From the IMG/VR virus record IMGVR_UViG_3300027797_000001, positions 32,001 to 96,000 of that record: a stretch of 64,000 bases of DNA; one strand, 5' to 3'. Both the position numbers and the translations under genes were made by a program. Position 1 is the first letter of the stretch; every line of letters starts with the position of its first letter. Origin of the DNA: a virus. The notes beneath the pieces are model-generated. The model had not been told where the DNA came from and ran no database searches. It saw only the letters and a list, made by a program, of their open reading frames with translations. Below are positions 24,464 through 62,692 of this stretch, piece by piece.

Positions 24464-24465
24464 TG

Positions 24466-34065: not shown

Positions 34066-37000
34066 ATGGCAACGTATATACAAGGGGTTACAGATTATAT
34101 ACCAGATTACCAGCCTTTTCAGCCTGACTTAAATTTCTATGCAAGTGCTTTGCAGACAAAACAAAATCAGTATGATAGTAATTATAAGGCTTTAAATAAT
34201 TTATATGGTCAATATTTTTATGCTGATTTAACAAGACCTGATAATATTAAAAAGAAAGATCAATTACTTAAGAATATTGACTTTAATTTAAACAGGGTAG
34301 CTGGTTTAGATTTATCATTAGAACAAAATGTTCAACAAGCTACTCAGATCTTTACACCATTTTATGAAGACCAATTCTTGATGAAAGATATGGCCTATAC
34401 TAAAAACTTTAGCAGTTCTTATAATGGTGCATTAGCATTACAGAAAAGTAAAGACAAAGAAACATATTCTAAATACTGGAATGAGGGAGTTAAGTATATG
34501 TTATATGAAAGAGAAAAGTTTAAAAAATCAACTGATGAAGAATCATTAGGATTTGCTAATGCAGAGTATGTGCCTTATAAAAATGCAGTTGAAACTTACA
34601 TGAAACTTGCAAAAGATATGGGTATATCAGCTGATATAACTCAATCCAATGGTAGATACTTTGTTCGTCAAAAAAATGGAGATTTAATTCTTCAAGATTT
34701 AAGTAGAATTTTTACATCTGCTTTTGCTAATGACCCTCAACTTCAAAAAATAGCTCAAGTTCAAGCTGTAGTAAATAGAGAAGATAAGATTAGAGAACTT
34801 GCTGGTAAATATAATGGAGATATTGCTGCTGCAGAAAGAGAATATTTACAAACTCAAAACGCAACTATCCAAGAATATATTGCATTAAAAAATTCTAAGA
34901 ATAAAGAGAATTTAAAAACTGTAGAAAATAAAACTGAATCTGTAAATAAAAAACTTGAATTTGGTGAAGGAAATCAATTTACAGAATCTTATGTAAAGTC
35001 TCTTGAGAAAGCATATGGTATTGCACAAGATAATGTTAATTATAGTGATGCTTTAAGTAATGAAATTTCTGATGACAAAAACAGAACATTAACTACTGCT
35101 GGAGGAACATCTAATCCTGATGATATTGAACAATTAAGATATAAAGTAGATGCGGGTACTGCATCAATGTTTGCAGAACAAGATATTGCTGAAGCAGCAT
35201 ATCAACGTTCTAGAGTAGATATGGTAGTTGATATATCAGCAGATCCATATGGTGTGTCCGCACAAAATCATGCATTTGCATTATCTAGACAGAGAGAAGC
35301 ACAAGCCCATAAAGAGTTCATGCTTGAACAAAAAGATATAAAAGATAAAGAAAATCTTGTTCTTAATGCTGGATTAGTTAATGGTACTTATATTGGTACA
35401 CAACAGGTAATGGGTGCAGATGGTAAAATGCATACTGAAGGAATTCCAAATCCAGCACTATTCAATAGAAGAACATTATTAGATACTGACTCTGGTGCAG
35501 CTACAGATGGAGAAAATAAACTTGTTGCAAATAGAGATAAATTAAAAGAAGTTACATCTGAATATGCAGATCCAATGATTAAAAACATTGTTAATACTCT
35601 TAACATGTTTGTTAAAGCTGGATATTTAAATAAGGGTGATATTGCTCCAATGTTTTTTAATGGTAAAATGGACGCAAATCAGTTCCTTAAAAATTATCAA
35701 GATAAGTCATACGGATATTTAAGTGGAAAAGGTGCTGATTATTTAGAAACACTTTATAATAAAGTTACTACATTTGCTATGGCACACAGAGGTGATGCTG
35801 GAGTAGCTGATTCATATTTAAGTAGTTCTTCTCATGAGAAGTTTGATGACTATGTAACATATCTTAGAGCAAATAAAAAACTTAAAGCTGATAATGCAGA
35901 AGTTATAAATAAGAATTTATATTCTTCTGTTGCTTTAAGCAGCTTAGGTTTAGATGATAAAATGAAAGAAAAACTAATAAGTAGTTTTTATGATAAAAAC
36001 AGTTTAATGATTTTATCAAAAGATGATTTTATCAATAGTAATAAAAATATGAAAGTTAATTCTGCTTTGCATTATCCTCTTTCCGTAACTAGTCCTGAAC
36101 AAACTGATAAAAGTTTTTCAATGACTCAGAAAGAATATAATACTTGGAAGCAAAATGTTTTAAAACTTGACAAAGAGTTATTCTCTATAGATCCAGCTGG
36201 AAAATTTTCAAATAAACTTATTGGTAATGTTGCAAGTATTGGTGATCCAAATCTTAGAAAAAAATATAACAGAGTACAACAAATCAAAAGTGATCTACAA
36301 AGAATGGGTGCTTGGAATGGTGAGAGAAAAATTGTTATTACTGATCATAAAGATGTAAACGGTAATGTAAAACCAATAGGTGTAAAACATAATGGATCTT
36401 CAATTTGGGATAATGTTAGTAGAGACAAAGAAGAAGTACTATCTGGAATATATGATGAGTTTGCAAGAAATTTTGTAAACACATCAAAAAGTAGAGAAAT
36501 TAAAAGTGTCTATGACTCTCCACATTTTAAAGGTACTGGTTTAGCAAGTACAGGAATTAATGGTTTAGATGTTTCAATGGCTGCACCTACTAGTCCTGGA
36601 TTTAAAGCTTATATAGATTTTATGGAAAAGGATATGACTAGAATAAATCTATATGATGGAAAAAATAAAGTAAGTTTCTTTGGTGCTAATAAAACTGGTG
36701 TAAATGATACTGAAGATTTATTGGATAATAATGATGCTGCTAAAGTAACTGAATTAATTCTAGAGCACTACTATAAAAATATTGGTAAAAAAGATATTAA
36801 ACCATTCTTCTTTGGTTCAAGACAAATTGCTCTTGAAGATAAAAATACCGGAGCAATGGTTATTAAACCAGACAATCAAGTATTAAAAGAACTTATAGAA
36901 TCAGATACTCAAGGTTTAATTACTAAAGAAGTACAACAAGCCATATTAAAAAATGGCATCTCTATTATATCTAATAAAAATAATTTCAGTAATGATATCT

Positions 37001-37308
37001 TTAAAGGTAATGAAACAACACCTTTAGAAAGTATGGTAAATGCATTAGAGGAAATTACTTATGTTAATCCTATGGGTGGTGGTGAAGTAACTGTTGCAAA
37101 AAATACAACTGGTACATCTGATTATAATATTTATGGAATACAATATTATATGGACAAAAATGGTCAGAAAAAATCAGAAAAATTTACACTACCTGTATTG
37201 ATGTATCAAAATAATATTGATCAACTTTTTTATCAGGCTAAGCAAATGCTTAGAGAGAATGCGGAAGATTATGCTGCAGAATATAGAAGATTCCATCAAA
37301 ATAAATAA
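34066..37308 (+). CDS. cargo/ejection protein
   Basis: 1080 aa, no Cys seen. N-terminal YIPDYQPFQPDLNF...KQNQYD resembles crAss-like proteins preceding the giant-gene block. Confidence 0.65.
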   Translation: MATYIQGVTDYIPDYQPFQPDLNFYASALQTKQNQYDSNYKALNNLYGQYFYADLTRPDNIKKKDQLLKNIDFNLNRVAGLDLSLEQNVQQATQIFTPFYEDQFLMKDMAYTKNFSSSYNGALALQKSKDKETYSKYWNEGVKYMLYEREKFKKSTDEESLGFANAEYVPYKNAVETYMKLAKDMGISADITQSNGRYFVRQKNGDLILQDLSRIFTSAFANDPQLQKIAQVQAVVNREDKIRELAGKYNGDIAAAEREYLQTQNATIQEYIALKNSKNKENLKTVENKTESVNKKLEFGEGNQFTESYVKSLEKAYGIAQDNVNYSDALSNEISDDKNRTLTTAGGTSNPDDIEQLRYKVDAGTASMFAEQDIAEAAYQRSRVDMVVDISADPYGVSAQNHAFALSRQREAQAHKEFMLEQKDIKDKENLVLNAGLVNGTYIGTQQVMGADGKMHTEGIPNPALFNRRTLLDTDSGAATDGENKLVANRDKLKEVTSEYADPMIKNIVNTLNMFVKAGYLNKGDIAPMFFNGKMDANQFLKNYQDKSYGYLSGKGADYLETLYNKVTTFAMAHRGDAGVADSYLSSSSHEKFDDYVTYLRANKKLKADNAEVINKNLYSSVALSSLGLDDKMKEKLISSFYDKNSLMILSKDDFINSNKNMKVNSALHYPLSVTSPEQTDKSFSMTQKEYNTWKQNVLKLDKELFSIDPAGKFSNKLIGNVASIGDPNLRKKYNRVQQIKSDLQRMGAWNGERKIVITDHKDVNGNVKPIGVKHNGSSIWDNVSRDKEEVLSGIYDEFARNFVNTSKSREIKSVYDSPHFKGTGLASTGINGLDVSMAAPTSPGFKAYIDFMEKDMTRINLYDGKNKVSFFGANKTGVNDTEDLLDNNDAAKVTELILEHYYKNIGKKDIKPFFFGSRQIALEDKNTGAMVIKPDNQVLKELIESDTQGLITKEVQQAILKNGISIISNKNNFSNDIFKGNETTPLESMVNALEEITYVNPMGGGEVTVAKNTTGTSDYNIYGIQYYMDKNGQKKSEKFTLPVLMYQNNIDQLFYQAKQMLRENAEDYAAEYRRFHQNK

Positions 37309-40300
37309 ATGGATATGGCAGAAAATGAAAATTTAGATGTAACTGGTAGAGCAGAATTTTTAAGAAAAGGAACAACAGAACTTAATGATTTTCTTCCATT
37401 TGGTGGAGAGCAAATAAATACTCAGAATAATTTATTTGCACAAAATCCTCAAAGACCGCCTATTCAAATTGAGAGTCCTAATAGTGATCCTCAAAAACCT
37501 ACTATACAAAAAGATTATATTCAGGACAATGGTCCTGGGATTATGCCATATAGTTCTAATCAACTTGCTAATACTTCACAGCAAAGAACACAAGCTAGAT
37601 TAAAAAAATTACAGAATGCTGCTTATAGTCTAGAAGATAATTCTCAGTACTCTAAACCATTTATGTATGACTCTACAGCAACAGGGGCACATAAAGCTAA
37701 GTATAAAGGATACGGACAAAGAACATATGATAGAATTGGTTTTAGCCCACTTGTAAACAATGAAGAAATCTTTATTAATAATACATCTATAGCAGATGAT
37801 TTCATAAGAACTGCTACAAACTCATTTTTCCCTATGGTTGGTCAGGGGTTAATTGCTAATCCTAAAAGTTATGCTCAATTGTTTCAAGGAAATATTGGAC
37901 AAGACTATGATCAATCTGAAGATTATGAAGAGTATTCTAATATAGGATACAGTAGTAGAGGTGGACCATTGGCTTTTATAAACAATGTCTTTAACTCACT
38001 TGGATATAGTGCCGGGGTAATGTTTGAAGCAGGTGCAGAGATGGCACTTGAAGGAGCTATAGAAGGTGCTATTGTTGGTAGTATTGAACCAGGAGCAGGA
38101 ACAGCTGCTGGTGGAGTTATAGGTGGAGCAATAGGTGGTGCAGTTGGAGTTGCTAGAGGATTGTTTGCTTTGCCAAAGTCTTTATTTAATATGGGGAAGT
38201 ATGGTGGTAAGATGTTATCTTCTTTAAAAAATGCTGAGAAATTTACAGAAGCTAAAAACTTATTCAATACTGCTGTAAAGTCTACAGCAAATTTTGTTAA
38301 TCCGGTAAATAATACACTTACTGCCTATAAAGAATATGATAATTTAACTGGATTAGCAAGAGCATCAAGAACAGCCGGGGGTTTCTTTAGAGATGTTATT
38401 GGTATGAATGCTGCCTTAAGTGAAGGTAGACTAGAAGGTGGGTTTGTAGAAAATAAAACTTATGAAAGATCCTATGATGAGTTTTGGAAAAAATTTAATA
38501 GAGCTCCTGATGATAAAGAACAACTTGAATTAAGAAAAAGATCTAAGATTGCTGGTTTTCAGGATACATGGAAAAATGGTATGCTTGTTTTTTATTCTAA
38601 TAAACTTGCGTTTCCAAATCTTTTTGGTAACAAGCTTTTTTCTAAAATGTCTAGAACAGTTGGTGAAATAGGAAATGAGTTTGATTTAGTTTATCAAGCT
38701 GGTAAGAAAGGTATTCAAGAAGGAAGTTATGAGTTAGTAGATTACAATATAAAAAATGCTCTTAAAGGTTTTATTAAACCAGCAAACTTCGGTAAGGCTT
38801 CATTAATGTATTTTAAGACTAACCTGGTAGAAGGTACACAAGAAGTTTTACAAGATGTGTTGGCAGATGCTACTGAAGAGTATTATGTAAATTCTTACTT
38901 TGATCCAACTAAAGCAAACTTTGATTATTCAATGTCCACATTGGGTAATGCTTTTGGACATCAAGTTTCTGAACAAGGTTTTGAAACCTTTATGTCTGGT
39001 TTTGTAATGGGTGCATTTTTAAAGCCAGTATCTGGTGTGCCAAGATTTGCTACTATCCAGTACAATAAAATGAAAATGACTCCAGAAGAGTATAAGACAT
39101 ATACTAATGATAGGAAAACATATGGTGAGCAGGTGAAGAATGCAATGAATAAGATGCATAAAAATCCTGTTGACTTTTTAAATGATAGAATGGTTAACTA
39201 TGGTAACCAAAGTATTATATCTAAAAAATTAGCAGATGATGAAACAGATGAGAAAGAAATGTGGGATGGTGTTAATGCATCTTTCTTATCAGATGTAATT
39301 ACTACATTAAGGGCTGGTACATTTAAAGTTTGGTTAAGTAATTTTGAAAAATATAACCAGATGAGTGATAAAGACTTAGAAGATACTCTAAGTCTTAAAG
39401 GAGGAGAAGGTCAAAAAATGCGGGAAACAATGTCAAACTATGTTTCTAAAGCTAAAAAAATACAAGCAAGATATGATGAAGGCCAAAATACTTTTGGCAA
39501 AAGAATGATTCCCCTTACTAATTTAAAAGAAGGTAGTCCTGAATATGAAAAAGCTCAGATATATAATAAAGCATTAGAAAGAGGTCTTTATAACTTAACC
39601 TTTTTAGGAGAGACCTTTGATTTAAATCTTGAAAGAATAAATGCAATGACTCAAAAACTTGGGTCATTGGATGCAATTAAAAACTTACCTGGTGCAGATT
39701 TTCAAACATTACTTGATCATGAAAGATTGACCAATAATATTAAAATACTTCAAACAGAAATTGAAACACTAAAACAAACTGGTGATCAAGCTGCAGTTAC
39801 ACAAGCAGAAAAGAAAGAAAGATTGTTAACTAAGTTACAGAAGTTTCAAGATACTCAAATTGATTATTTAACTCTTAAGAAAGCAACTGAATCTTTAGAA
39901 TTACTTAAACGTGAAGCAAAAGCTGCTGGTAAAAAAGCAAATATAGAAGATCTAGAAGTTGCTAAAGAGATTATTGATTATTATAAAAAGAATGGAAAGA
40001 ATCCTAAAAAAGATCATAAAAAAGCATTTGAAGAATTATTAAAAGATTTATCTGGCTCAGATGTCAACTTCATGAAAATGATGAGACAATTAAAAGCTAA
40101 TGATGGCATGAGAGATTTATTTACAAAGTTAACAGACATATACGACTTAACTTTAGAAAATAAAAACATAGTACCATATGTTACAACTCTTACAGATCCT
40201 GATGGTTTCTATGAGCATGTAAATAGAAACTTTGAGTGGATGAGAAATCTTTGGCTTAGTAGGCAAAACTATTACAAAGAAGTAATAGATAAGTCTATTA

Positions 40301-43300
40301 AGATGAAAGAAAATAATGATGCATTAAGAGAATTAGCTAATCTAAATATATATGTTGATCTTGATCAATTTGCAGATTGGACAGAAAATCCAAATGCATT
40401 ACCAGAATATTTTATTGATGCCAGTCAAGGGTCAGAAAGAATTATTCCAAAAGGTAGTGTGCTTTATGATAAGTATGTTAAAGTTCTTAATGATACAGCA
40501 AGAGCTCAAGAAACAAAAGCTGCTGGAGATCCAGTAGATATTAATGGTCAGCTTGATGAGGCTATAGAAGATTTAATGAATAAAAAATCTGTAGAAATTG
40601 ATGAAGCAGATAAACAATTCAAAGAAGCAATTAAGGTTGAGACTACATTTACATATGACGAACTCTTACAACAAGAAGAAGACTTAAGAAAATCACAAGA
40701 GGCTGTAGTACTTACTGAAACACAAAAGAAAGTAATTGATGCTGATATAAGTAAACTGTTTGAAAATATGCCAGCAGATGATCCTGCTGCTATATTACAA
40801 CAACTTAGAAATTTTGTTAATAGAGGTGTTATTCCTGAAGAGTTTTTAAATGATGATAAAATAGTTGAGTTTAGAGATGAGTTCTTAGTTAGTCCTTCTG
40901 ATGACAACATGCTTGGATTATCAGAGAAAAGAATGAAAGAAATCAAAGCTGAAGCTATTGAGTTATATAGATCTTTTCCAGAAACCTATGATGATACACA
41001 AAGAAGAGATGCAGCTGGTAGATACATGGCAGTTTTTGAATTAATAAACAACTACTTAAATTCTACAGAAGTAATTAGTTCGAAAGAAAAACAAGAGAAA
41101 GCTAAAGAAAAAGTAGATAGCAATATCATTAATACTACTCAAGCATATGCAGATTATCAAATTACACTTAAAGATATAGATGAGAGATATGCTGGATTAT
41201 TGCAAGAGTTAAAAGATCTCTTTATTAAAAGAGGTGCATCAACTACACCTACAGAAAAAGAAATATCTACAAAATCATCATGGGCTGATATACAAAAATC
41301 TGCACCAGCGTTATACAAAACTTTGTTAGAGCAATTTAATAAAGAAGTTGTTGAAGGTATGGGTATTAATGAATCTGATGAAAACTTTGAAGGAGTTAAG
41401 AATAACTGGTTAGAACAACAAGGTGAAACAATCAACAGATATAATGTTGAAAAAGAATCTGAAAAAATTATTAAACAACAAGAGGCTAAACAATTTAAAG
41501 TACCGACATTAAAGTATTTTAAATTACCAGCACGTATTGCAAATATAACTCCTTCATCAAGGATTAAACCATATCAAGATGTTATTTCTGCATTGAAGTT
41601 AATGTTACAAACAAAAATTGCTGTTGATTTAAAAACACAAAAACAAATAAAGCTAACAAATGAAGATTTAACAAATATTAAAAGTGATATTGTAGAATTA
41701 GAAAGATTAGTAAACTGGTTAAGTGAAAATGGAGTTGTAGAAAATGAAACTTTATTTGATGTTACGGATAATATCTTTACTGAAAAAGTAAAAAATAGAG
41801 CTGGTGAAATAGAAGAAGTAAGGGATGAGAATGGTGTACTAATTGAAAGAAGAATAGATGGTGCTCCTGCAAGAAGGGTAACTAAAGAAGCTGAGAAATT
41901 AGATATAGAAAGTACACCTGGAAAAGAAAGTTTTGTTTATGAACCTTTAAAAACAAAAACAAAGACTAAATATGATGCAGAAGGTAATGTTACTGAAGTA
42001 TATGATGTACCATCACCAATCATGTCTGCATATGATGCTATTATAGAAAGTGATGACATTGCTGATAACAAAAAGTTAGATGCTTTCTTAAAGTCATTTA
42101 CTCAATGGGTGATGGCATCCGGTCTAGTATTTAAAGATAAGACAGGTAAAAAAATAAACAAAGAGAAATATGATCTATTAAAAGAATCTTTAGAACAAGA
42201 TTTCTCTAGAGAGAATGTTTACAATACTGTTGGAAGTCTAGCATTTAAACACTCATCAGATGCTGGTAATATAATTGATGATTTAATAAAAGATTTTTTA
42301 ACTAGAGAAGGTACATCATTTAAAGAAATAACCAAACCTGAAAAAATGTCTAAAAAAGCATTTGATAATTTGTTTGGTAAGAATGGTGTAATTAGAAAAT
42401 TTAGAGATGGTATAATTGATGGTGATTATATTATTGTTGGTGCTGGAGATTTAGTATTTGATAAAACTCTTTTTGAAAATGGTATAGTAGGTGAGACAGA
42501 TTTAGTAGCTATAAATACTAGAGGTGAGTTACAAATTATTGATATTAAAGCTCTTGGTTCTGGAAGTTGGGCTATATTTAATTCTGATTTGGAATTAAAT
42601 AAAAAAATTAACGCTCTTAAAAAACAGGGGTTAACAGATCAAGAAATTGAAAAAGATTCTGATGTTGCTCTAATAAAACGAAACTTATTAAAAAGTAAAA
42701 AGCAATATTATAGAATTCAACAATCTATTTATAGAAACTTAATCTGGAGAATGACGGGGATTAAACCTACAAGAATTGGTTTAATGGCCTTAGAGGTAGA
42801 TGTAGATACTGAAGGCAATATTAATAATGCAAACATTTCAAATATAGTTCCTAAAGGAGAAAGCACACTTGAACTAGAATACTTCCCTGGTGTTGAATCA
42901 ATTGTTCCAGAACCTGAAGTTACAAGTCAACCTACAAAAGGTCTTGTTTCTGAAATAACAGAAGAAGAATTTAATGATTTTGTTAACAACGGTGTTGTTT
43001 CAGAAGATAGACTTAATTCTATTGCTAATAAGATTAAAAATAATCAATCATTAACAACTCAAGAAACTGCAATATTCAATGATAAAACTTCTGAAGTAAA
43101 TGCAAAAATTCAAGAAATATTTACTTTAGAAGATAATCCAGAAAGATCTAACGTTGTAGCTGATAATGTAAATCAACAAATCATTTATAATGGTAGGGTT
43201 GGAACACTTAGACTTGTAGGTAATGTTTACACTATATTTTATAGTGATGGCACTGGTGGACAGTTATTATATAAGCAAAATGCATTAACTGATGGAAGTG

Positions 43301-45024: not shown

Positions 45025-45027
45025 GAA

Positions 45028-54000: not shown

Positions 54001-55554
54001 TCTGTACCAACTAAATTAGTAGATCAGTTAAAATTTGGAGCATTTGTTAAAAAAGATCCATCAGGAGTTACTACTATGTATATAGACCAGGCAGCTATTG
54101 AAAATGACTTTGATAGAGGTATATGGATTAATACATCTGAGGATCAAGACAGTTATATAAACAGAGGTTTATATCCACTTACTGAAGCACACTTTCATTC
54201 AAATGTAACTACCAACAAAGATGAGTATGTGAAATTTGTTACTGAAAGAGAGTATTTAAGATCTATTTATCCTAAGTCAGAGATAACTAAAACAATTCAG
54301 TTTGAAGAAGAATTAATAAATGTTAAAGGAGAGAAACCAGACTTATCTGAGGCTAAAGCAGAAAGCTATACTTATGAGAAAATCTTAGCAATTAAAGCTC
54401 TAGAAAATACATTAAATCCATATCACATGTTTAATGATCCTGTATATGCATATGCTGTACAATTCAATAAGCTAATGGAAAAATATGGAGAGATTAAAAA
54501 ACAATATTCTTTACTTAATAAATTAAAGCCTGAGCCTAATAAAGCTAAAAATATGTTTAATCTTTATGTGGCTGAAAAAGACTTTACAAATGATTCTTCT
54601 AACTTGTATTATGAAAATTTACAAGAGCTTTCAAATCCAGCAATTAAAAAAGTTGTTGATGAAAGACAGAATCAAGAGATAAGTGATTTCTTTGGTAAGT
54701 TATCTATGTATGCATTTATGCAGACTGGTATAAATAAGACCAAGTTTAATTTTAATAACATAGTGGATTTTAAAGAATACATGTATTTAATTAATGATGA
54801 GATAGCTACTTTTACTAAGGCATTAGAAAATTCTAAAACTGCAAATAAATTCTTAGATGATTTTTATAAAAGATTTGTTTCAGAAAATTCTAAAATAAAT
54901 AAAGACCGTGGTAGATATAAAAACTATCTCTTTAATGTAAGCATGACTGAGTTAGCAAAAATTGCAGATGTTGATACTAATGGTCTTACATTAACAGAAA
55001 GATATAAATTAATGGAGAGTAAAGAAGAGGGGCAATTTATATACGATAATATTAAGGCTACTCCAACAGATTATAATCTAATGCTTAGTAGAAATGAAGA
55101 TGTTACTTTTGCATATCCAGCTCCCGTAGTTGTATTGCAAGGGCAGTCATCTGGAATTGGAGACTCTGTAATTAGAAATATATCTAAAGAAATGTCAGTA
55201 GGTTTTGCTACATCATTGCTTGTAGATTCTGATGCACTAACTGAACTAGAGGCAGAGGATTATGAAGCAATTAAAAATTCATATGATGCAGCAATTGAAA
55301 GACTATTAAACTTAAAGAAAGATGGTAAAATGATTGCCTTCCCATTAAAAGGAATTGGTAATGCAGCAGCCATGCCTCAAGAATTATTCGTATATTTATC
55401 TAGAAGATTATACCAAGAATTTGGGTATCTAAATCCGGGCTCTACTATGTATAAAGAAATTAGTGAATTAGTTGGAGAAAAACAAGGGATATCTGATGCT
55501 GAGATATTAGCAGAACTTGGACTTGAAGAAGATCCTTTTGCATGTAAAATTTAA
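45028..55554 (+). CDS. giant virion-packaged DNA-dependent RNA polymerase (crAss/phi14:2 gp66 type) with accessory domains
   Basis: 3508 aa. Catalytic GADFDIDK (DFDID at 52435-52449), RIPVQGLNSM at 52318, and DGQG, TQLRK, GWVDVEK motifs. Zincin-like HEAWH at 47923-47937 with downstream EEVLAE. Confidence 0.9.
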   Translation: MACLLNEKDVLDIYSDIYENFLEVLDSKSKTPFSPIDYIKTMHSDIAENNDPKFALEVVQAIPQIMLQVIATRGDVRKYIALNNIDTNSLIKLSVDFEKIENVKKFIAGKMPSLSDVKSKIATKNKSDKEVKLKNPEDTSENSDNKVSNTKIEDPLTSTFQYAKAVNPDTATEEELEQRDPEKNTTHSVVKQIIGLFDNRPANSDEVIYQGTSVALRPMMLNMVPKEQLFSDDAKFLEENPEYNGIVVIISDVDGNILNFDEDGNLVDDGKIAYQYLRDLELKNSKISLMNRSGYKYELVSAEQTLKAEDKKEKERNGLGMSQKQKENRLIEIENEQKQKMNDLYRIRQFVMRNPEEVFTLKIIGGSYGNFKNKFIPLSETGLNLNEITLPIAAGPQKGYIKVRIKTKGAGGYIDHYVLLQRGDVTSEIADKIATILTTDAVYRGKPLSDLAKYTYANVFLDNAIEKNNIRIDLKKVNGFNELQVSIKGEKVDLDSPTAFDEIKNHLLKAVELGSKTYPANLNYNKDLIGGSFTDYIIKDGKVSTRKQDYFEFIKPYMKIEFSKLSGGFFMNSNSYLQFAVPEEILPPSKRNYSLASTTSTTNKVKEVETQDVEDEESVDVEPGEVVYNLKKQVGYALATENAQNTDVTLNIAVNFEQGEAKIAKRSAKNHVPVTLNKKRSTQKSFGNLTTIAGNVIKQLNRFKSDTLNVAGNDIVTSIFNGYTQQDLDQFMNQLFERIVNSDSLITPIKKIVTTGESGVPESAIKAAKKNGIGVEITVPTGWTFFVYRKNSANKKYKISNLEEFKARFGDAKVKTTAKRKTSSTINKTKSKFTKAKTTSRKTTPKKTTKQANKKVDTQLNKSAISTQFSLLSRLGERRELFKGDNDELNRLDTLERKVGNFFERLFTTKAQRDSIYKWWETHPMSKHVPLDIITGIVNSDAFATWSQHGITLHLANNATPIDLWHEAWHGFTQLYLTPEEKTKLYDEIRKTPKFENATYFDIEEVLAEDYRNYLRDNTLFTGFIGTIYKKIRDFLRTMFGKITRQDMTRPRDIAIVKELYDKLYRGDILDLEPSMDNIMFTKLNRSSKTINLLQSQEEKYSPFSPKESDHILKMFDTLVADNIKYYNSKNNSKAGVVRLFADKDLKTKLYYSIKQQFADMVSELMSEYKTLALANSDDPAIPELQAKIDLLIKALDNFGNIDAAINDKNVGGVIGYIVKKSRFNQIQEEVIEDPNDLENTRVLQDYKGNVINPKNLASPTTLALISTTFKVEKTEDGQVLPVLDYFGLPQLENLDDIWNKLAKVLAGSFDYTEMYQRLTDSLENYPEFQDILDSLRSPSDYDFKDKTQWRLETNFWQDFKKPRVPFLQYNINKNIVKKKQLDEETGREISPEVANYESVVTNASFAINSVISDWKFNFITSTRDINPYIDIQDNQVLLDTGKIIQKFSDRNGIFTDSKSREFLEALGIYMDRSSAEINAIFADPVKVSNAFFLPFMFDVIKLVDKASQTTDVGKVAAAEKFKSDPVTYLLRGLGGADTKALVENDAAKYDVASRIKALATLQNAYSDGYSNFSVLTPEGNRVWEQVVDNTITRIVTAINKAEDWQQLTNAASDPDNMFQHMRWLGNENNPYSKHSKLLNSIFILDVEESDPSYGAKRTKIEGGNSVPIQLKINNIGGTQLIVNNENDGTGASTASLDATSKFLQEMHTMLLNGIEEFMRHASKNTAMSLKPDEIETYPEKTDKHLYVDIDLFSPKYQGLGETEAFEIILGYIAGELERVNRYKNNDDYKQYKGYNREVYDDRGKVVDAGSVFTAFDDVLSTKVKDELYKIEGDLFEALDNNPDLRQRIENDVTEYFQKETEANLERLESARYVDANLFDKTLDPSLTQAQRDEILVKAYTYNSWIHKFETLILAYGDLVQYDHSKEEFHKRNAGLGSGGRGFRSDVQAIQYINSLTNVYADKYGYTLRPYDGTLRTAIMKEKKVKESIYYKEYLKELTDSINKRIKNKVKAAEMAETALGEYLGMKEGDGQGHITLEAYRNLKELEGKWTDQQELLYLKVANGETITAEDVIEFFPSYKLQYFGAIDSEGLAITSFHKFSLAPIIPFTTASNSYLEKLNKKMMEQNIDYVTFETGSKVSHIGSGDVVIDENGNFNDDVVFTENKIFTEFLKNQTEINSVYKGKSIFSTQLRKLILEGLYEKGVIDTTEEDKITDPRVRKYLKDVAEYSETLRVELLEEIGFEKEGDKYIPKNKDSITKLTELIRENLTKEDVVGDHLIDIIDVTDSGSLAFDLSIHPEAVKIEKLLTSLINKRLIKQQFNGEPLVQVSGAFYTDAFGLTEGKFKNASDEDRKKWMGSNVLPTYHKKKDGFTAAMKVAIALQGDYTNLLNLEYKGNVIGDIDTLNLAIKDDEWLDANNGANRKAITMVAVRIPVQGLNSMEFMEVYHFLPPQAGNIIVPPTEIVAKSGADFDIDKMTIYMNNINEDGTTPERFFENIEELKDYLNDPEVSDDEKFLAMKSQKQYLQNSIINSMKELLELPQNYVSLITPNGTFLVKELADELSQYVMDYNPFNVKNGKERKDVKTGKKSISPTRVLESLYNLYKHESNVVGKNTLGLGAVENTFHTLINSVETAGGVAMPDSFMHGKEKDLRKSLLWLRHNITKKNGKELISIASRYDVDGINKIADIISQLMNGWVDVEKEAWVFFVQGNYEVAPILLYLLKTGVPVDEAVYFVSQPLVREYVKEQRLAKSTFADVLGKKPDSRNFVRYQAASEVLLNALPKEMHSSVSNNRKRYELGLELAERIFKSKKEKSFTKKQMLDLITQTKKKPETANSGLSIAMFLHYLQIEQQITGLTELKMAANPDTSTDATAGEAEQSLAQIERVKTNTKNEDYLFDALKNDSIISSLFNYDLILSLNEMMFPLRYNRAISDYLMAKSDVLREDSQMIFGENKTDVFMNTFRNDIISFLFQQAARKFKLGDSYKSYTLKKSVPTKLVDQLKFGAFVKKDPSGVTTMYIDQAAIENDFDRGIWINTSEDQDSYINRGLYPLTEAHFHSNVTTNKDEYVKFVTEREYLRSIYPKSEITKTIQFEEELINVKGEKPDLSEAKAESYTYEKILAIKALENTLNPYHMFNDPVYAYAVQFNKLMEKYGEIKKQYSLLNKLKPEPNKAKNMFNLYVAEKDFTNDSSNLYYENLQELSNPAIKKVVDERQNQEISDFFGKLSMYAFMQTGINKTKFNFNNIVDFKEYMYLINDEIATFTKALENSKTANKFLDDFYKRFVSENSKINKDRGRYKNYLFNVSMTELAKIADVDTNGLTLTERYKLMESKEEGQFIYDNIKATPTDYNLMLSRNEDVTFAYPAPVVVLQGQSSGIGDSVIRNISKEMSVGFATSLLVDSDALTELEAEDYEAIKNSYDAAIERLLNLKKDGKMIAFPLKGIGNAAAMPQELFVYLSRRLYQEFGYLNPGSTMYKEISELVGEKQGISDAEILAELGLEEDPFACKI

Positions 55555-55558
55555 AAAA

Positions 55559-58500
55559 ATGGTTTGTAATTCTAAAGAAAACTCTATTCAATATTTAGTA
55601 TCAAAAGGTGCTATAAATGATGTTAGAAAAGTAATTGATAGAGACTTATTTGATAAGTTAAATGACAGTTTAACAAGGTATGCTGAGACTAAATATGGTC
55701 TTGATACTATGGGTGCACAGTTGTTTACGGCAGCTACAGAACAAACTAGATATTTAAAAGATACTCCAGCATATAGAGAATCCACATATTCTATTAAACG
55801 GGCAGTTCCTAATGAGGTATTATTTCAAAGACTAGATCAGTTAGTTACACAATATGAGAACAGATCTGATACAGATCAATCTATGTTTAATAGACCTTTA
55901 GAACTTGAAATTAATGCAGATATAAAAGAAGTATTTGCAGCTTTCCCTAGACTTGCTTCAGTTGGAACATTAGATCAATATAGAGAATACTTAAATTCAA
56001 GACTTACATTTCCAAAAATATTAGTTCATGCAACAGTAGTTCCTTTTGAAACTTTTGATGAGGATCTTACAACAATGAAATCAAAAGATTTGGGTTCCGG
56101 TTTATATGTCTCTGATCTTAAAAATAATTGGTCAAAATATCAAGAACAAAATAAACGTAATATATCAAGACAATTAAGAAATAATTTTGAAGATGCTCTT
56201 GAAGATTATTTTGACATGTCAATTGACGATATAAATGATAAATATTTTAAAAGGGTAGAGTCAAAGTTTATAAATCCAATATCTAAACTTAAACAATTAC
56301 TTGATTCTCGTTCAATTAATGCATTTGAATTTAATGATCAATTAAAAACTATTGAAGTTGCTAGACAGTATGAAATTTTTAGACTTGCAATTGGGGATAT
56401 AAAAAGTAAAAAAACTAAAGAGAGATTGTCAAAACTACTTGATAAAGTAATAACTCCATTTGCTATTTTAGATAAACCAATTAATCAATATTATGGATAT
56501 ACTGGAAACAGTATAAAATATGTTAAAGATGGATATTTAGAACTTAAAGGAAATGAAAAAGAATCATTGATCATTGAAGGTACAGTGAATGATGTTAAAC
56601 AAGCTGTTTTAAAAAATCCAAAAGATTATTTTGTTTTAGGTACTAACCCAGATATAAATGCATTTAAAGAGTTTGTTGCTACAACAAAAGATATGCCTAT
56701 GATGATGAGAGAATCATCAAAAATTACACAAGATGATAAAAGTTACTATAGAGGTCAAATAGAAAAACCTTTTATTGATAAAGACGGAAACTTAATTCTT
56801 TTTGGTAGAGAAGATGAGCTTTATAAAAAAGCAGGTCTTAAAAGTTATGGCATATCAATGACAGATAATTTAAAAACTGCTGTTGGATATGGAGAAGGTC
56901 AATTTGAACGTGAAAATCTATTATTTGATGATGTATGGGGATATGACGTAAATACATGGGAAGCTGAGGATGCTTACAATGAACTTCAAGAAAACGGATG
57001 GTGGTTAATTCAAATTCCTAAAAATATTAACTATGAGATAGTTAAAGAAGCTGGTGAAGTTAAAGTTATTGGGAATAAAATTATTGTACCAAAAGGTCAA
57101 TATAAAATTCAACAGTTTGCAGATAATGTAAAAGAAACAATAGAAACAAATGATTTTGATTTACCAATTTTTAAATTTGATGCAGCAACAATTGTAAATG
57201 CAAGATCAAAAGAAGTAGCTACAATTTTAGCTAACAGACTTGCATTAGGTTTAAAAGTTAATTACTATAATATTACAGAAGCAGAGGCTCGAGATATTCT
57301 TAAAAATAGTAAGATACCATATCAAGGTGAGCCAGCATTCTTTTTTGCGGGAACTGTTTATACTGTAGGAGATAATGTAAACTTAAATACAGTACTCCAT
57401 GAATTCTCACACCCATTACTACAGGGAATAAGAAAAACTAACAAAGGGAAAGAGCTATTTAATAAATTATATGCGCAGTTAGATGGTACTACAGAAGGAG
57501 ATGCAATAGTTAATCACTTAAAAGCAGAATACCCGGAACTTGAAGAAGGATCAGATAGATTTAAAGAAGAAGCTTTAGCTTATGCACTACAATTGCGTGC
57601 AGTAAACTTGGTAAATAATAAAATAGAGTCTGAAGGTTTTGATAAATTTATTAAAAACTTATTATATCAAATCAAGCAATTCTTAAAATCTATATTTGGC
57701 AACAAAGTAAATGTAGCCAAGTTAGATGTAAATACTTCTTTAGAGGAACTTGCAGACATGCTTCTTGAAAAAGATTTCATTTATGATACTGATAAAATAA
57801 CATATGATGATCTTGTAGCTTTTGCAAGATATACAAAAGCAAGGGTGGATTTTCTCACTAAAAATGCAAGTAAAAATGCAGTTACAGACTCTATTAATAG
57901 TTGGTATACATCTACTAATGCAGTTTTAGAAAGAGCAAAAAATTTTAAGGGTAATAAAGTAACAAGAGAAATTGTAAAAAATAGTTTACTTAGAAAAGGA
58001 ACTACTGAATTAACTCCTGGAATTAAAAGATCTCTTTCTGGATATCAAACAATTAATAAAGGAAGACAACAATCTGTTGATGAAGTTATAGAGGGTGCAA
58101 TAAATGCTGAAGAACTTAGAATTAAAGATCTAACTAACAGATCAACTGCATTTGTAAGCTCATTAGAAATTACAAATAATTCCATCAAAGAAATTGAAAA
58201 TGAATTAAAGTTACTTCAGAAAAAGAAAAATTTTGGTGGAAGATCTGATATTGCATTACTCGGTTTATATGAGAGTTCATTAACAAGATGGTATAGAAGT
58301 ATATCAGATGTTTATGACATATTAAAGAGTGACTTTAATATGACAACGGATAATCCTTTTTCTAGACTTTTAAATGAAATGTCTACAAACATTAGTGAGT
58401 CACGAAAAATTATTATTGATCTTTATAGAAAGAATACTAAGTATTTATTTGTTTCAATTACTGGTTACATGTCAGACTTTGTTAAAGATGAATTAAATAC

Positions 58501-61500
58501 TGAGCTTGGAAAAATCTTAAAAGATAAAATGTCTCAACAGGAATATGAAGATTTCTTTAATAAAATCATACATCAGAAGTTAGAAAAAAATGATGTAGAA
58601 AATCTTACTAAAAAATATGGAGTTCCTGCACTATTTGTCAATAGATTGATAGAGAGATATAACTATTTTATAATTAATGAAACTACTATATCTGACATAT
58701 TAAAAGGTAAGTTCAAGGATGTTAGCATTTTAAATAGATTCTTTGAAAGTTATTCTTCAAGTACAAGTCCTATTGTAGGAGCATTATCTATTTATTTGGA
58801 GAACCAAGAAAGACAAGCAGAGCAAAGAGCATGGGATAAGAGTTCTAAATTTAGAAAGAAGTTAGAAGGTATATTACCATCAGTAATAGAATTTAATAAA
58901 TGGAATACCCGTCAAATGCTCGACTTAGTTACTGAAAAAGATACAGTAGCATTTTTTGATAGCAAGGAAGGTAATATGATTAAGAAAGATGTTTATACTT
59001 TCTTAAATGAATTTGGTAATGGCTGGAGGTATGACTTAGATATACTAGATCATGCTATTGATGAGGCAAGAAAAGCTGGTGACCCAGAAGCTCTAAAAAA
59101 TGCAGAATTAGCATTAAGACAATTTAAAAGGGATTACATGCATGATGAGTATGTTCCTGAGTATTATGAGAAAGATGACATATTTAATTCATCACCTATA
59201 GGACAAAAGGCATGGGTAGAAAGAAAACTTGCATTAGATGAGTTTTCAGCAGAAGCAAATAAACTTCATAATGAGTCAGAAAGATTTGAGGCATATGGTG
59301 TTTTACAAGAACTGTGGAGAAAATATCAAATGCTTTACTCATTAGTAAATGAAGATGGTACACCTAAAACAGGAGAAGACTTAGAAAAAGCTGAGCTTTT
59401 ACTAAAACATAGAAAAGAAACATCTAAGTTTCATGAGTTTGTTCCTGTTCCTGGATCATTACAGACAGCATATAATGAATTTATCAATCTTAAAAAAGCT
59501 GAGGGAAAATCACAAGCAGATATTGATGAGTTATTAAAAGCTTGGTTAAAGCAAAATACAAGATTAGTTTACTCTCCTAAGTTTTATGAAGAAAGAACTA
59601 AGTTACTTAATAGATTACAAGAGCTTCAGGAGAAAGTAAATATTACAGGATTTAATCCAAGTGATAATTACAAAACAATTTCTAACTTAATATATGGTTT
59701 TAAAGATGAACAAGGACAGCCTGATCCTAATGCATTAGGAGAAGAAAGACTAGAACAAATTAAACAACTACAGCAAGAAATAATTGATTTTAGATTTAAT
59801 TTTGATAGTAACTCTGGCCTTTCAAGAGAAGATCTTGATGAGTTAAAAGGTTATGTAATGGCAATTAAGAATAGAAAATTGACAGAGCCAGAACAAAAAA
59901 GATACTTATATCTTATTGAGAAGCAGACTGATCAAGGTCTTACAATGGAAGAAGCATTTGAGATGCAATCTATTTTTGATGAGCTTGGTGAGCTAAGCAT
60001 GAAAGTTCCTACTGAATATTACTTAGATCAATTAAACTTTAATCTTTCTAAGTTTAACATTGCTGCTGTAACAGAAGATAAAGTCAATGAGTATATTAAC
60101 TCAGATGAATTTAAAGAGCTAGTAAAAACTGATGAGAACTTTTATAACTGGTTTTTACTTAATCACGTAAATAAAAAAGTATTTAAAAAAGGAGTTGGTC
60201 TAACAAATGTTTTTGAAAGAACTCTTGCTAACTCTGTTACAGTACCAAAAAATGCTTCAATGATAGAAACTACAACTATTATTGATGAATCTACAGGAGA
60301 AGAAATAAATTTAATGGGTGTCCCTAATAGCAGACACTCAATCTATACTGTAAAAGATCAATATAGATCTATTCCATTTGGTTTAACAGCAGAAGAAAAG
60401 AAAAAGTATGTAGGTAAGATAATTGATAATAAAGGAAACTTCTTACCTAGACTTTATGATGGAACAAAGACTGGAGCTAAAACTGATAAGTATATAAACA
60501 AAAGATACTTTGATTTAAAAAGATCAAACAGTGCACAGTTTCAGGTAATTGAAACTATTAAACAATATTTTCTAGAAGCTCAAGAAGGTAAAGCAAATAT
60601 GGCAAAACTATATTTAGATTTACCAAGATATGCTATAGATAATATTGTAGAGTCTTTTCAAGCTGGAAAATATTTAGATAGATATCAGCAAGCTAAAGCT
60701 GGACTCAGTGAGTTTTGGGATACTACATTTGGAAAGGCTACTAGAAATGCGCAAGATACATTTAACTATAATCCAGAGTTTAATCTTGTTAATACAGACA
60801 TGGATGGAGATCAAGTAACTTATATCCCTGTGTCTGGTCTTTATAATATTGATGCTGATAAAGTTTCTCCAGATGTATTTCAAAGTATAATGAAGTATGC
60901 ATTATCTCTAGAGATACATGATACTCTTTTACAAAATTTACCATTAGCTGAATCAATAGTAGAAGTATTCTCTTCTCCAGAAGCACAGCCAAAAGCTATA
61001 AATAAATATAGAAGAGATATATTTAAAGCTACTGGAGAGTTAAAAGAAGCTAATGCAAAAACAGGCACTAATCAAATGCTTGGTCAATTAAACTCTTTAA
61101 TTGAAAGACAATTCTATGGTGTACATAATCAGGATTTATCTGAAAAATATCCTAGAATAACTAAAGCAATTAATGCAATGCAGAAAGCTTCATCTACTGC
61201 ATCTTTAGCTATTAATATTCCATCTGACCTTAAAAACAAATATGGTGCAATGGTTCAGTTAATCATTGAAGCAGCAGGTGCAGAATTTGTTAACTTAAAA
61301 GATTTAGCAGCAGGTAGACTTTGGGCATTTAAAGCTATGACAAGTTGGTCTTCTAAAACCGGTATCTATGCTGTTGGCCCTGGATCGTTTACTACACAGT
61401 TAGTTGAAATGTTTGACCCAACATTTAGAGGTAGAGATAATACAGGTAGAAGTGTAAGTAGAAGTTTATACAAAGATCTTGTTAACGGAGAGTGGATGTA

Positions 61501-62692
61501 TATGCACAGAAAGTTTGGTGAGATGGAAGTTGCTTTAAGTTTGTTTGGTTCTTTTATGAATGCACAAAAAGTTGAGCAAGTTGTAGATGGTAAGACACAA
61601 ACAATAAGATACATTGATGCTTGGGAACAAGATGCTGATGGTATTGTAAGACTTAAAAAAGGGATACATCCAAAATGGAATAACCTACATGTTTATCATA
61701 CTGTTGCAAAAGGAGATACTTTACAAAAACTTGCTAAACAATACTATGTAACTGTAGAAGAATTAAAAGCTAAAAATAGAATTGCAAGTGATATAGAACT
61801 TGTAGAGGGTGATGAGATAGTAATTGCTAAATCAGAAGGCTTTGACTTATTTAGAAATCAAGTTCAGGGAACGTCAAGATATCTATTTGGTGCATATGAT
61901 AAATTTGGACAACCAGAAGCTAATAAATATTTGCTATATAGACTATGGGTATTCATGAGAAAATGGTTTACAACAATGTTTGTAAATAGATTTGGATCTC
62001 AAGTTATCTTTACTGAAGGTAAAAAATTACCAACATTAGTTGCAAGATATGACTGGGCATTAGGTAAAACTAAAAAAGGATACTATGTTACTGGGTTTCA
62101 GTTCTTAGTTGATATGCTTAAAACAAAAGGTCAGAATATTAAGTATATGAGGGAAGAAGAAAAGGTTGCTTTTAGAAAACTATCTGCAGAGGGATTGTTT
62201 ATCATAGCATCTGCTTTAATTGTGTCAGCATTATTTGGATATGATGAGGATGATGAAGATAAGTGGAAAAAAATAGCTGAAAGATCAGAAGCATTTGGTA
62301 CTGATGGTTATAATACTTATGGATTCTTAACTAATCACGCATTACTATTATTACTAGGAACACAAGCTGAGACTACAGCGTTTATTCCACTACCAAAAAT
62401 AGGAGGAATTAACCTTGGTGCTGATGATTATATCAAAATGGTTACTCAAACATCTACAGCATTTAATAATACTATACAGTTGTACATAGAAATTTTCTCA
62501 GACTTTTTAAATATGGTTACCTTCAATGGTGCATCTAGATATAAAAGAGATGCTGGACCATATCCTTGGGAACAAAAGGATGATTTAAAAATTATTGATC
62601 ACGTACTTAAAACTGTAGGATTTACAGGTTCTTCTGGAGACCCCGAAACTGTACTTAAAAATCTTAAAGCTTCAGGTGAAAGAGTAAGATAA
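55559..62692 (+). CDS. giant virion cargo protein 3: ART-like modules, zincin HExxH, LysM, C-terminal hydrophobic helices
   Basis: 2377 aa from ATG 55559 (A-rich leader; preferred over TTG 55517, which overlaps the RNAP gene). HEFSH at 57398-57412 plus KEEALA; LysM at ~61694-61825. Confidence 0.75.
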   Translation: MVCNSKENSIQYLVSKGAINDVRKVIDRDLFDKLNDSLTRYAETKYGLDTMGAQLFTAATEQTRYLKDTPAYRESTYSIKRAVPNEVLFQRLDQLVTQYENRSDTDQSMFNRPLELEINADIKEVFAAFPRLASVGTLDQYREYLNSRLTFPKILVHATVVPFETFDEDLTTMKSKDLGSGLYVSDLKNNWSKYQEQNKRNISRQLRNNFEDALEDYFDMSIDDINDKYFKRVESKFINPISKLKQLLDSRSINAFEFNDQLKTIEVARQYEIFRLAIGDIKSKKTKERLSKLLDKVITPFAILDKPINQYYGYTGNSIKYVKDGYLELKGNEKESLIIEGTVNDVKQAVLKNPKDYFVLGTNPDINAFKEFVATTKDMPMMMRESSKITQDDKSYYRGQIEKPFIDKDGNLILFGREDELYKKAGLKSYGISMTDNLKTAVGYGEGQFERENLLFDDVWGYDVNTWEAEDAYNELQENGWWLIQIPKNINYEIVKEAGEVKVIGNKIIVPKGQYKIQQFADNVKETIETNDFDLPIFKFDAATIVNARSKEVATILANRLALGLKVNYYNITEAEARDILKNSKIPYQGEPAFFFAGTVYTVGDNVNLNTVLHEFSHPLLQGIRKTNKGKELFNKLYAQLDGTTEGDAIVNHLKAEYPELEEGSDRFKEEALAYALQLRAVNLVNNKIESEGFDKFIKNLLYQIKQFLKSIFGNKVNVAKLDVNTSLEELADMLLEKDFIYDTDKITYDDLVAFARYTKARVDFLTKNASKNAVTDSINSWYTSTNAVLERAKNFKGNKVTREIVKNSLLRKGTTELTPGIKRSLSGYQTINKGRQQSVDEVIEGAINAEELRIKDLTNRSTAFVSSLEITNNSIKEIENELKLLQKKKNFGGRSDIALLGLYESSLTRWYRSISDVYDILKSDFNMTTDNPFSRLLNEMSTNISESRKIIIDLYRKNTKYLFVSITGYMSDFVKDELNTELGKILKDKMSQQEYEDFFNKIIHQKLEKNDVENLTKKYGVPALFVNRLIERYNYFIINETTISDILKGKFKDVSILNRFFESYSSSTSPIVGALSIYLENQERQAEQRAWDKSSKFRKKLEGILPSVIEFNKWNTRQMLDLVTEKDTVAFFDSKEGNMIKKDVYTFLNEFGNGWRYDLDILDHAIDEARKAGDPEALKNAELALRQFKRDYMHDEYVPEYYEKDDIFNSSPIGQKAWVERKLALDEFSAEANKLHNESERFEAYGVLQELWRKYQMLYSLVNEDGTPKTGEDLEKAELLLKHRKETSKFHEFVPVPGSLQTAYNEFINLKKAEGKSQADIDELLKAWLKQNTRLVYSPKFYEERTKLLNRLQELQEKVNITGFNPSDNYKTISNLIYGFKDEQGQPDPNALGEERLEQIKQLQQEIIDFRFNFDSNSGLSREDLDELKGYVMAIKNRKLTEPEQKRYLYLIEKQTDQGLTMEEAFEMQSIFDELGELSMKVPTEYYLDQLNFNLSKFNIAAVTEDKVNEYINSDEFKELVKTDENFYNWFLLNHVNKKVFKKGVGLTNVFERTLANSVTVPKNASMIETTTIIDESTGEEINLMGVPNSRHSIYTVKDQYRSIPFGLTAEEKKKYVGKIIDNKGNFLPRLYDGTKTGAKTDKYINKRYFDLKRSNSAQFQVIETIKQYFLEAQEGKANMAKLYLDLPRYAIDNIVESFQAGKYLDRYQQAKAGLSEFWDTTFGKATRNAQDTFNYNPEFNLVNTDMDGDQVTYIPVSGLYNIDADKVSPDVFQSIMKYALSLEIHDTLLQNLPLAESIVEVFSSPEAQPKAINKYRRDIFKATGELKEANAKTGTNQMLGQLNSLIERQFYGVHNQDLSEKYPRITKAINAMQKASSTASLAINIPSDLKNKYGAMVQLIIEAAGAEFVNLKDLAAGRLWAFKAMTSWSSKTGIYAVGPGSFTTQLVEMFDPTFRGRDNTGRSVSRSLYKDLVNGEWMYMHRKFGEMEVALSLFGSFMNAQKVEQVVDGKTQTIRYIDAWEQDADGIVRLKKGIHPKWNNLHVYHTVAKGDTLQKLAKQYYVTVEELKAKNRIASDIELVEGDEIVIAKSEGFDLFRNQVQGTSRYLFGAYDKFGQPEANKYLLYRLWVFMRKWFTTMFVNRFGSQVIFTEGKKLPTLVARYDWALGKTKKGYYVTGFQFLVDMLKTKGQNIKYMREEEKVAFRKLSAEGLFIIASALIVSALFGYDEDDEDKWKKIAERSEAFGTDGYNTYGFLTNHALLLLLGTQAETTAFIPLPKIGGINLGADDYIKMVTQTSTAFNNTIQLYIEIFSDFLNMVTFNGASRYKRDAGPYPWEQKDDLKIIDHVLKTVGFTGSSGDPETVLKNLKASGERVR

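Follow-up and report, generated by a model that had tools for sequence, protein, structure and literature searches.

The locus described here raises the question of why a set of giant phage proteins, almost entirely purged of cysteine (Cys), should keep single Cys residues at the ends that face one another in gene order. The DNA analysed (the window, 64,000 nucleotides) covers bases 32001–96000 of the IMG/VR virus record IMGVR_UViG_3300027797_000001, which is 114,922 bp in length and has direct terminal repeats. Four open reading frames (ORFs) spanning 34066–62692 encode a protein of 1080 amino acids (aa) and three giants, named here giant1, the polymerase and giant3. Among their relatives, each inner terminus of the set carried one Cys and the outer termini carried none. 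Comparative sequence data make it rather probable that head-to-tail Cys–Cys links, most simply disulfides, tie the cargo into a linear chain that corresponds to the fused forms of these proteins found in some crassviruses.

Translation of the four ORFs yielded 4 Cys in 9,536 residues: Cys2569 of giant1, Cys3 and Cys3506 of the polymerase and Cys3 of giant3, with none in the 1080-aa protein. The preliminary description, which was based on a scan by eye, had reported four Cys in about 9,500 aa, all at junction-facing ends, and this count was reproduced; an internal Cys, which it had allowed might have been overlooked, was not present in the window. The genes and Cys codons are as follows.

34066..37308, plus strand: Cys-free, cargo-type protein of 1080 aa, outside the proposed Cys-linked chain (translation)
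37309..45024, plus strand: giant1, 2571 aa, first member of the proposed chain, sole Cys at residue 2569, end ..KNCNI (translation; homologues)
45013..45015, plus strand: TGT codon of giant1 Cys2569, third residue from the end; proposed partner, polymerase Cys3
45028..55554, plus strand: homologue of the crAss-type virion RNA polymerase, 3508 aa, middle member, ends MAC.. and ..FACKI (tblastn, blastp)
45034..45036, plus strand: TGT codon of polymerase Cys3 (MAC); M1, A2 and C3 invariant in alignment A1
55543..55545, plus strand: TGT codon of polymerase Cys3506, in the conserved ..DPFxC tail; proposed partner, giant3 Cys3
55559..62692, plus strand: giant3, 2377 aa from the ATG, last member, Cys3 only, C-terminus without Cys
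55565..55567, plus strand: TGT codon of giant3 Cys3 (MVC); M1 and C3 invariant in alignment A2

The longest frame of giant3 opens at a TTG at 55517, but its homologues start at the methionine of MxC. About 2.5% Cys would be expected from base composition, and the 12 non-cargo ORFs upstream in the window (before 24463) contained 2.3% (168 Cys in 7,356 residues). The probability that all four Cys would fall no more than three residues from a terminus by chance was about 3e-11, and that of four Cys lying solely at the four junction-facing ends was about 1.4e-12. The large upstream ORFs 24463–27654 and 27713–31069 were likewise Cys-free. Homologues of the 1080-aa protein, which start with MATY(L/I)QG and lie upstream of giant1, contained no Cys in most loci and two Cys in two of them.

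An alignment-based scan retrieved 79 IMG/VR loci, each consisting of the polymerase gene with 10 kb on each side, and 69 of these, including the window, were non-redundant. A junction was scored as paired if a Cys was present in the last ten residues of the upstream protein and in the first seven of the downstream protein. Cys was found on both sides at 124 of the 126 adjacent-ORF junctions in the 69 loci; the two unpaired junctions border non-cargo genes, one a homing endonuclease and the other the first Cys-rich gene after the module. No Cys was found at the outer ends of the set, either at the first N-terminus (0/54) or at the last C-terminus (0/59). In the chain proteins, 490,834 residues altogether, 251 Cys were terminal and 32 internal, the latter amounting to about 0.07 per 1,000 residues. 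More junctions came from a second scan, made with giant3, and every one of them conformed to this pattern. The number of terminal Cys was always 2 × (members − 1), i.e., twice the number of breaks, and the rule is one Cys on each inner terminus and none on the outer termini. The earlier claim that the Cys are paired in gene order and absent from the outer ends was thereby borne out. It had also been claimed that a C-terminal CxI is followed by MxC; the Cys pair proved general, and the CxI tail proved to be limited to the clade of the window, with 0 to 10 residues following the C-terminal Cys in relatives.

The same layout was present in cultured phages. In phi14:2, Cys was located at −1 (counted from the C-terminus) of gp078, at 3 and −2 of gp077 and at 3 of gp076. 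In crAss001, it was located at −3 of gp47, at 5 and −9 of gp50, which has one internal Cys in addition, and at 5 of gp49, and the arrangement in DAC15 was the same as in crAss001. The giant1 homologues crAss001 gp47 and DAC15 gp078 lie on the strand opposite the polymerase and its downstream partner and keep the same Cys layout, indicating that no junction DNA or translational coupling is involved.

Conservation of the terminal Cys in orthologues, which the preliminary description had proposed as a check, was observed in all three families. Among 120 polymerase homologues with 39–95% identity, the C-terminal Cys was present in all 120 and the N-terminal Cys in 118; exactly two Cys were found in 116, one in MAC and one in (D/N)P(F/L)xC followed by 0–2 residues. 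The remaining four included two with one extra Cys and two without the N-terminal Cys, in which the start was different and shorter. A Cys within the last seven residues was present in 78 of 78 giant1 homologues, down to 24% identity, and was the sole Cys in 76. For giant3, MxC was found at or just after the called start in 110 of 120 homologues, and the other ten were truncated or start-shifted calls (the latter including P0294, P0276 and P0242) that begin at least 15 family positions downstream or are without the N-terminal domain. The residue between Met and Cys and the context of the C-terminal Cys varied by clade; the Cys itself was constant.

The Cys also tracked the fusion of these genes. 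A single ORF (4,070–4,245 aa) encodes both polymerase and third protein in LMMB and crAss002; it has an N-terminal MSC and a C-terminus without Cys, and the separate upstream protein retains its C-terminal Cys. The annotated start of crAss002 gp33 (L006, 13948–14052) lies 32 codons upstream of an MSC (residues 33–35) that matches the LMMB start, and is probably too early by these 32 codons. In five Suoliviridae (cr4_1, cr118_1, cr7_1, cr60_1 and cr10_1), giant1 and the polymerase form one ORF (4,460–5,443 aa) without an N-terminal Cys and with a C-terminal Cys at −1 to −11, and the next protein begins with MIC, MFC, MTC or MKIIC. The two-member chains generated by fusion thus had one Cys pair only. 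In LMMB, crAss002 and cr4_1, the positions at which the proteins are fused were not pinpointed by hidden Markov models built from the terminal 200–250 residues. In the window, giant1 and the polymerase gene are in one frame, with only TAG-GAA between them before the ATG (45022–45030); in a TAG-recoding relative, the two would be read as a single fused protein.

Splits of these genes were accompanied by additional Cys. Four-member chains, with three pairs, contain a link ORF between the polymerase and the last protein, encoding 242–261 aa in three loci (L058, L072 and L075) and 655 aa in L087. The link proteins have exactly two Cys, at 3 and −1, and of the flanking proteins the polymerase ends in Cys and the downstream protein begins with MxC or MxxC. 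The last 120 residues of the link proteins were homologous to the C-terminus of unsplit polymerases (L064, L065 and L081; E to 1e-17), which have two terminal Cys only. In L030, a GIY-YIG homing-endonuclease gene (197 aa; 20710–22548) interrupts giant3. In P0228, which is unsplit, residues 1–374 match the 396-aa piece at 94% identity and residues 425–2460 match the 2,232-aa piece at 98.6% identity, and judged by these identities the split is recent. The new ends are ..VDCG and MAC.., and P0228 has no Cys in that region. About 196 N-terminal residues of the downstream piece are new, and its product, P0230, carries a precomputed Pfam assignment (PF13671); the Cys-bearing ends were seemingly supplied by the cassette itself.

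Two candidate exceptions were rejected. The polymerase of L075, which appeared to be without an N-terminal Cys, has a frameshift in a ten-A run (9690–9710), and an upstream 51-codon frame starts with MVNC; this run points either to an error in sequencing or to a slippery site. The giant1 of L049 is split into two overlapping frames (7560–7680), with about 70 codons absent compared to L042 and flanks that are 100% identical, and represents either a recent deletion (defective variant) or a misassembly. In L047 the giant3 frame is interrupted after 128 residues, whereas giant3 is continuous from family residue 24 onward in L155, which is cut at its 5' end, and from residue 489 in L132. IAS virus was ambiguous, with undetermined bases in its record and more internal Cys. 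A 290-nucleotide non-coding gap (15876–16165) was also seen inside the polymerase gene of L089 (cr108_1), between two annotated coding sequences, and probably represents a self-splicing intron, a type of element already reported from crAss polymerase genes.

The following domains and motifs, together with homology searches and gene order, bear on the identity of the three giants.

42205..42813, plus strand: PD-(D/E)XK nuclease-type domain of giant1 (residues 1633–1835), common with crAss001 gp47 (hhalign; PF12705)
47923..47937, plus strand: HEAWH, zincin-like HExxH of the polymerase protein; H966, E967 and H970 invariant in A1
52429..52452, plus strand: GADFDIDK, DxDxD catalytic-type motif of two-barrel RNA polymerases; invariant in A1
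57398–57412, plus strand: HEFSH motif in giant3, an invariant HExxH (A2)
61697–61825, plus strand: LysM domain in giant3 (Pfam, E 9e-9)

GADFDIDK occupies residues 2468–2475 of the polymerase and was invariant in the 39 homologues of A1; the phi14:2 preprint calls this catalytic motif DFDxD. The polymerase core matched the polymerase genes of phi14:2, crAss001 (gp50), crAss002 and the p-crAssphage-like LMMB in tblastn (E down to 5e-22; 1e-14 to phi14:2 and 4e-15 to crAss001 gp50). In blastp, residues 1883–2824 aligned to residues 837–1758 of phi14:2 gp077 (E 4e-22, small database), which is the chain of PDB 6VR4 and is annotated as a DNA-dependent RNA polymerase. PDB sequence searches with the single polymerase sequence and with profile A1 did not reach 6VR4, and the homology claim is based on the tblastn and blastp matches, not on the PDB searches. 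The giant1 profile matched crAss001 gp47 over the PD-(D/E)XK-type domain (hhalign 98%, E 1.2e-13), PF12705 was precomputed for two distant giant1 homologues, and giant1 gave no match to phi14:2 gp078. The N-terminus of giant3 matched phi14:2 gp076 (E 3e-8). PHROG and Pfam searches of the four proteins were nearly silent, with LysM in giant3 as the sole match; their invariant HExxH motifs notwithstanding, no Pfam or PHROG peptidase domain was found in the polymerase protein or in giant3. A blastn search of the junction region against a phage collection returned nothing, the N-terminal 1,324 residues of the polymerase gave only short weak matches in tblastn, and two single-protein scans of IMG/VR returned nothing, the IMG/VR loci having come from the alignment-based scan.

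By gene order, the polymerase is flanked by its two giant partners at the end of the structural module. In crAss001, gp45, gp46, gp47, gp49 and gp50 were identified as virion cargo by mass spectrometry (PMC10172136), and the phi14:2 homologues are annotated as structural from tandem mass spectrometry. These sequence comparisons assign the window genes to the crass-type virion polymerase cargo modules, of which they form a divergent example, and by analogy with the homologues found in virions, the giants of this phage are most likely packed and injected. Inserted domains varied among close homologues (P0024, P0059, P0203, P0230, P0240, P0247 and others), with precomputed assignments to PF06414, PF13671, PF18760, PF00583, PF09397 and PF12705. 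By their predicted domains, the giants act as carriers of swappable effector-type modules.

Among the neighbouring genes, ORF 31079–34006 (975 aa, cargo-type) has eight Cys, all in a 42-residue cluster (residues 649–690; window 33023–33148) whose pattern, CPC..CPC..CPC..CKPC, looks like a small metal-binding knot. Tail- or fibre-type ORFs were Cys-rich, with 65 Cys in 816 aa (6278–8728), 21 in 555 (3778–5445) and 17 in 569 (8748–10457). The cargo shows the opposite, and a tail heavily braced by disulfides, as in crAss001, would fit these counts. ORF 3778–5445 does not encode the capsid protein; its matches to cyanophage structural proteins cover a short repeat only.

The preliminary description had the giants joined end to end, and every available comparative sequence test agreed with it; the bond itself, its chemistry and its purpose we infer from three direct observations, namely the Cys rule, the conservation of the Cys and the way in which they follow fusions and splits. 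In the proposed mechanism, each C-terminal Cys would bond to the N-terminal Cys of the next protein, most simply through a disulfide formed inside the particle. The product would be an almost unbranched chain, because each Cys is within a few residues of an end; it would have about 8,450 residues, in the same order as in the fused polyproteins, and its partners would be held at 1:1:1. Such a chain could be threaded through the portal and tail as one string. The tail of crAss001 has constrictions of less than 50 Å (PMC10172136), and near-terminal Cys, which keep the product nearly linear, would suit threading through a narrow tail. The links would then be reduced by thiol reductants of the host cytoplasm, and the chain would fall apart. 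The purge of other Cys would prevent wrong links, and would also serve the avoidance of periplasmic disulfide catalysts, which is the reason published for Schitoviridae. Disulfides do form in crassvirus particles, as in the linked tail proteins of crAss001 (PMC10172136), and the tail ORFs of the window are Cys-rich. In the crystal of phi14:2 gp66 the termini show no order (phi14:2 preprint) and would therefore be free to reach a partner, and the three proteins are fused in some phages (phi14:2 preprint).

Several points weigh against this proposal. The upstream cargo protein of LMMB (L005, 2805–5390) and crAss002 (L006, 3253–4926) has a lone C-terminal Cys (−2 and −8, respectively). In these Intestiviridae it occupies the gene-order position of crAss001 gp45, and the next protein is without an N-terminal Cys, so unpaired terminal Cys can occur. 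Internal Cys are tolerated in some gut lineages (7 in 4,070 aa in LMMB, 9 in 2,159 aa in IAS). Particles are assembled in the cytoplasm, which is reducing, and the lumen inhabited by gut crassviruses is anoxic, which makes the oxidation step questionable. Neither a thioredoxin (PF00085) nor an Erv1-type oxidase (PF04777) was found in this genome; the PF04777 search was empty in 14 control genomes too and is hence uninformative. Mispairing, such as a circular polymerase or homodimers, is conceivable, and no mechanism of avoiding it was found for two junctions. Fusion also removes termini, so the fusion data alone would fit a need for Cys at each terminus; the specific case for pairing comes from the Cys-free outer ends and the strict arrangement of a C-terminal end with the next N-terminal end. 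Co-folding of the polymerase C-terminus with the giant3 N-terminus of the window, run without controls, scored 0.04 with the outcome 'no answer' and is evidence neither way.

Other explanations of the terminal Cys were weighed against direct Cys–Cys links. Attachment to another target, for instance a portal or tail protein rich in Cys or another copy of the same protein, or a role after injection as a redox switch or in membrane or host attachment, is unlikely. It would suit the Cys-rich structural proteins found here and in crAss001, which in crAss001 are disulfide-linked, as well as the lone C-terminal Cys in LMMB and crAss002; particles may contain each cargo protein in several copies (PMC10172136), and Cys loss upon fusion would be equally expected, since the termini vanish. 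However, it leaves unexplained why the inner termini all have Cys and the first N-terminus (0/54) and last C-terminus (0/59) have none, and why a C-terminal end is constantly paired with the next N-terminal end, recent splits included. The same head-to-tail pairing could instead be made through a bridging metal, e.g., a two-thiolate Cu(I) or Zn site with nearby carboxylates, to which all of the pairing evidence applies equally. Such a site would be workable in the reducing cytoplasm in which assembly occurs, acidic residues stand beside many C-terminal Cys (e.g., EEDPFKC), and the neighbouring cargo protein retains the eight-Cys cluster of metal-binding appearance. No conserved His or second Cys was found near any terminus, however, two-member chains would offer two thiols only, a two-ligand site would be weak for pulling a chain through a channel, and structural disulfides are documented in crAss001 particles, all of which makes a metal bridge quite unlikely.

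The fused polyproteins of some crassviruses are thought to be cleaved (phi14:2 preprint), and the Cys might accordingly lie in terminal packaging or maturation peptides, as remnants of polyprotein sites of a zincin-like protease whose products are not covalently linked. The invariant HExxH of the polymerase protein and giant3 and the short conserved motifs around the Cys, DPFxC and MxC(E/Q)V, speak for this. AB toxins are nicked between two bridged Cys, and cleavage and linkage could therefore coexist. We consider peptides of this kind very unlikely, as separately encoded proteins keep the Cys though they need no cleavage, the Cys is fixed while the surrounding residues differ widely between clades, and a sorting signal would not skip the N-terminus of giant1 and the C-terminus of giant3. 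A nucleotide-level junction signal that happens to encode Cys, acting in translational coupling, recoding or as a processing site, has a negligible probability, as does chance. The two window junctions are alike (TGTAAnATTTA..AAATGGnTTGT), and the reading frame of giant1 continues across TAG-GAA-ATG into that of the polymerase. Against a DNA signal, the rule persists with giant1 on the opposite strand and the distance from Cys to stop ranges from 0 to 10 codons; against chance, the probability is about 1e-12 in the window alone and the pattern recurs at 124 of 126 junctions. Both were refuted by the opposite-strand layouts (crAss001 and DAC15) together with the 124 paired junctions.

The window was compared with known systems. 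The Crassvirales RNA polymerase module (phi14:2 gp65-gp66-gp67, equal to GenBank gp078/077/076; crAss001 gp47/gp50/gp49) has, like the window, three giants of the late module, of which the central one is a two-barrel polymerase with the DFDxD motif; sequence homology and the terminal-Cys layout are shared as well. The lineage of the window is very divergent from it, with about 23% identity over the polymerase core, and differs in the length of the polymerase (3508 versus 2180 aa), in its HExxH and in the LysM of giant3. The fused RNA polymerase polyproteins of LMMB, crAss002 and Suoliviridae have the same domains, in the N-to-C order of the proposed chain, and the separate partner keeps the Cys pair; there the members are joined by a peptide bond, whereas the window proteins would be joined by a post-translational Cys–Cys link. 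In di-chain AB toxins of the diphtheria and clostridial neurotoxin type, one interchain disulfide ties the translocated chain to its partner and is reduced in the target cytosol. These toxins are analogues in mechanism only, without homology, and consist of nicked single chains bridged across a loop, whereas the window has separately encoded proteins that would be joined at their ends. The Schitoviridae proteins N4 gp50 (the virion RNA polymerase), gp51 and gp52 are alike in that a giant packaged polymerase is injected ahead of the DNA and Cys is suppressed (PMC11445570). They differ in having no Cys even at the termini, and the N4 polymerase is T7-like, single-subunit and non-homologous, whereas the window giants keep four terminal Cys. 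The earlier statement that the ejected proteins of N4 are Cys-free was correct (0 Cys in gp50, gp51 and gp52), and the same applies to Schitoviridae (PMC11445570). Because the three N4 proteins are without any Cys, the terminal Cys of the cargo is a crassvirus feature. Polyvalent proteins (Iyer et al. 2017, PMC5512222) are giant multidomain proteins that enter with the DNA and bear a zincin-like HExxH and swappable effectors. The window giants resemble them in being encoded with virion genes, in the variable Pfam families of their homologues, in the LysM of giant3 and in the PD-(D/E)XK-type domain of giant1; for polyvalent proteins, proteolytic processing was proposed and neither Cys nor disulfides were mentioned (PMC5512222).

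Cys suppression in the ejected proteins of Schitoviridae is published, the reason given being the avoidance of periplasmic disulfide catalysts (PMC11445570). Cargo Cys and inter-cargo disulfides are unmentioned in the crAss001 atlas, the phi14:2 preprint and the literature on crAss diversity, N4 and DEV ejection and polyvalent proteins, and as far as the literature search reached, the terminal-Cys rule is unreported. On a broader reading, over which our own opinion is evenly balanced, the Cys would constitute a 'coupling code': any break in the cargo polyprotein, ancient or made by a mobile element, would be healed post-translationally by a terminal Cys pair, and about 1 MDa would be ejected as one covalent, near-linear string in fixed order and at 1:1:1. 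Reduction in the host cytoplasm would free the proteins and may switch on the polymerase, and the Cys purge would prevent wrong links, not only ease passage through the periplasm.

The rule has practical uses, in that it corrects start-codon calls (crAss002 gp33) and offers a sequence signature for chain members in metagenomes, and the linkage that it suggests is directly testable, since the cultured phages phi14:2, crAss001 and DAC15 already carry the pattern. Crassviruses, which rank with the commonest viruses in the human gut, have a packed and injected polymerase cargo of about 1 MDa, and this cargo is invisible in the cryo-electron microscopy maps of crAss001 (PMC10172136). Two Cys per junction would provide a concrete model for the order, stoichiometry and release of this cargo, would account for the tolerance of fusion, splitting and mobile-element insertion in these genes, and would add another reason for the scarcity of Cys in ejected proteins.

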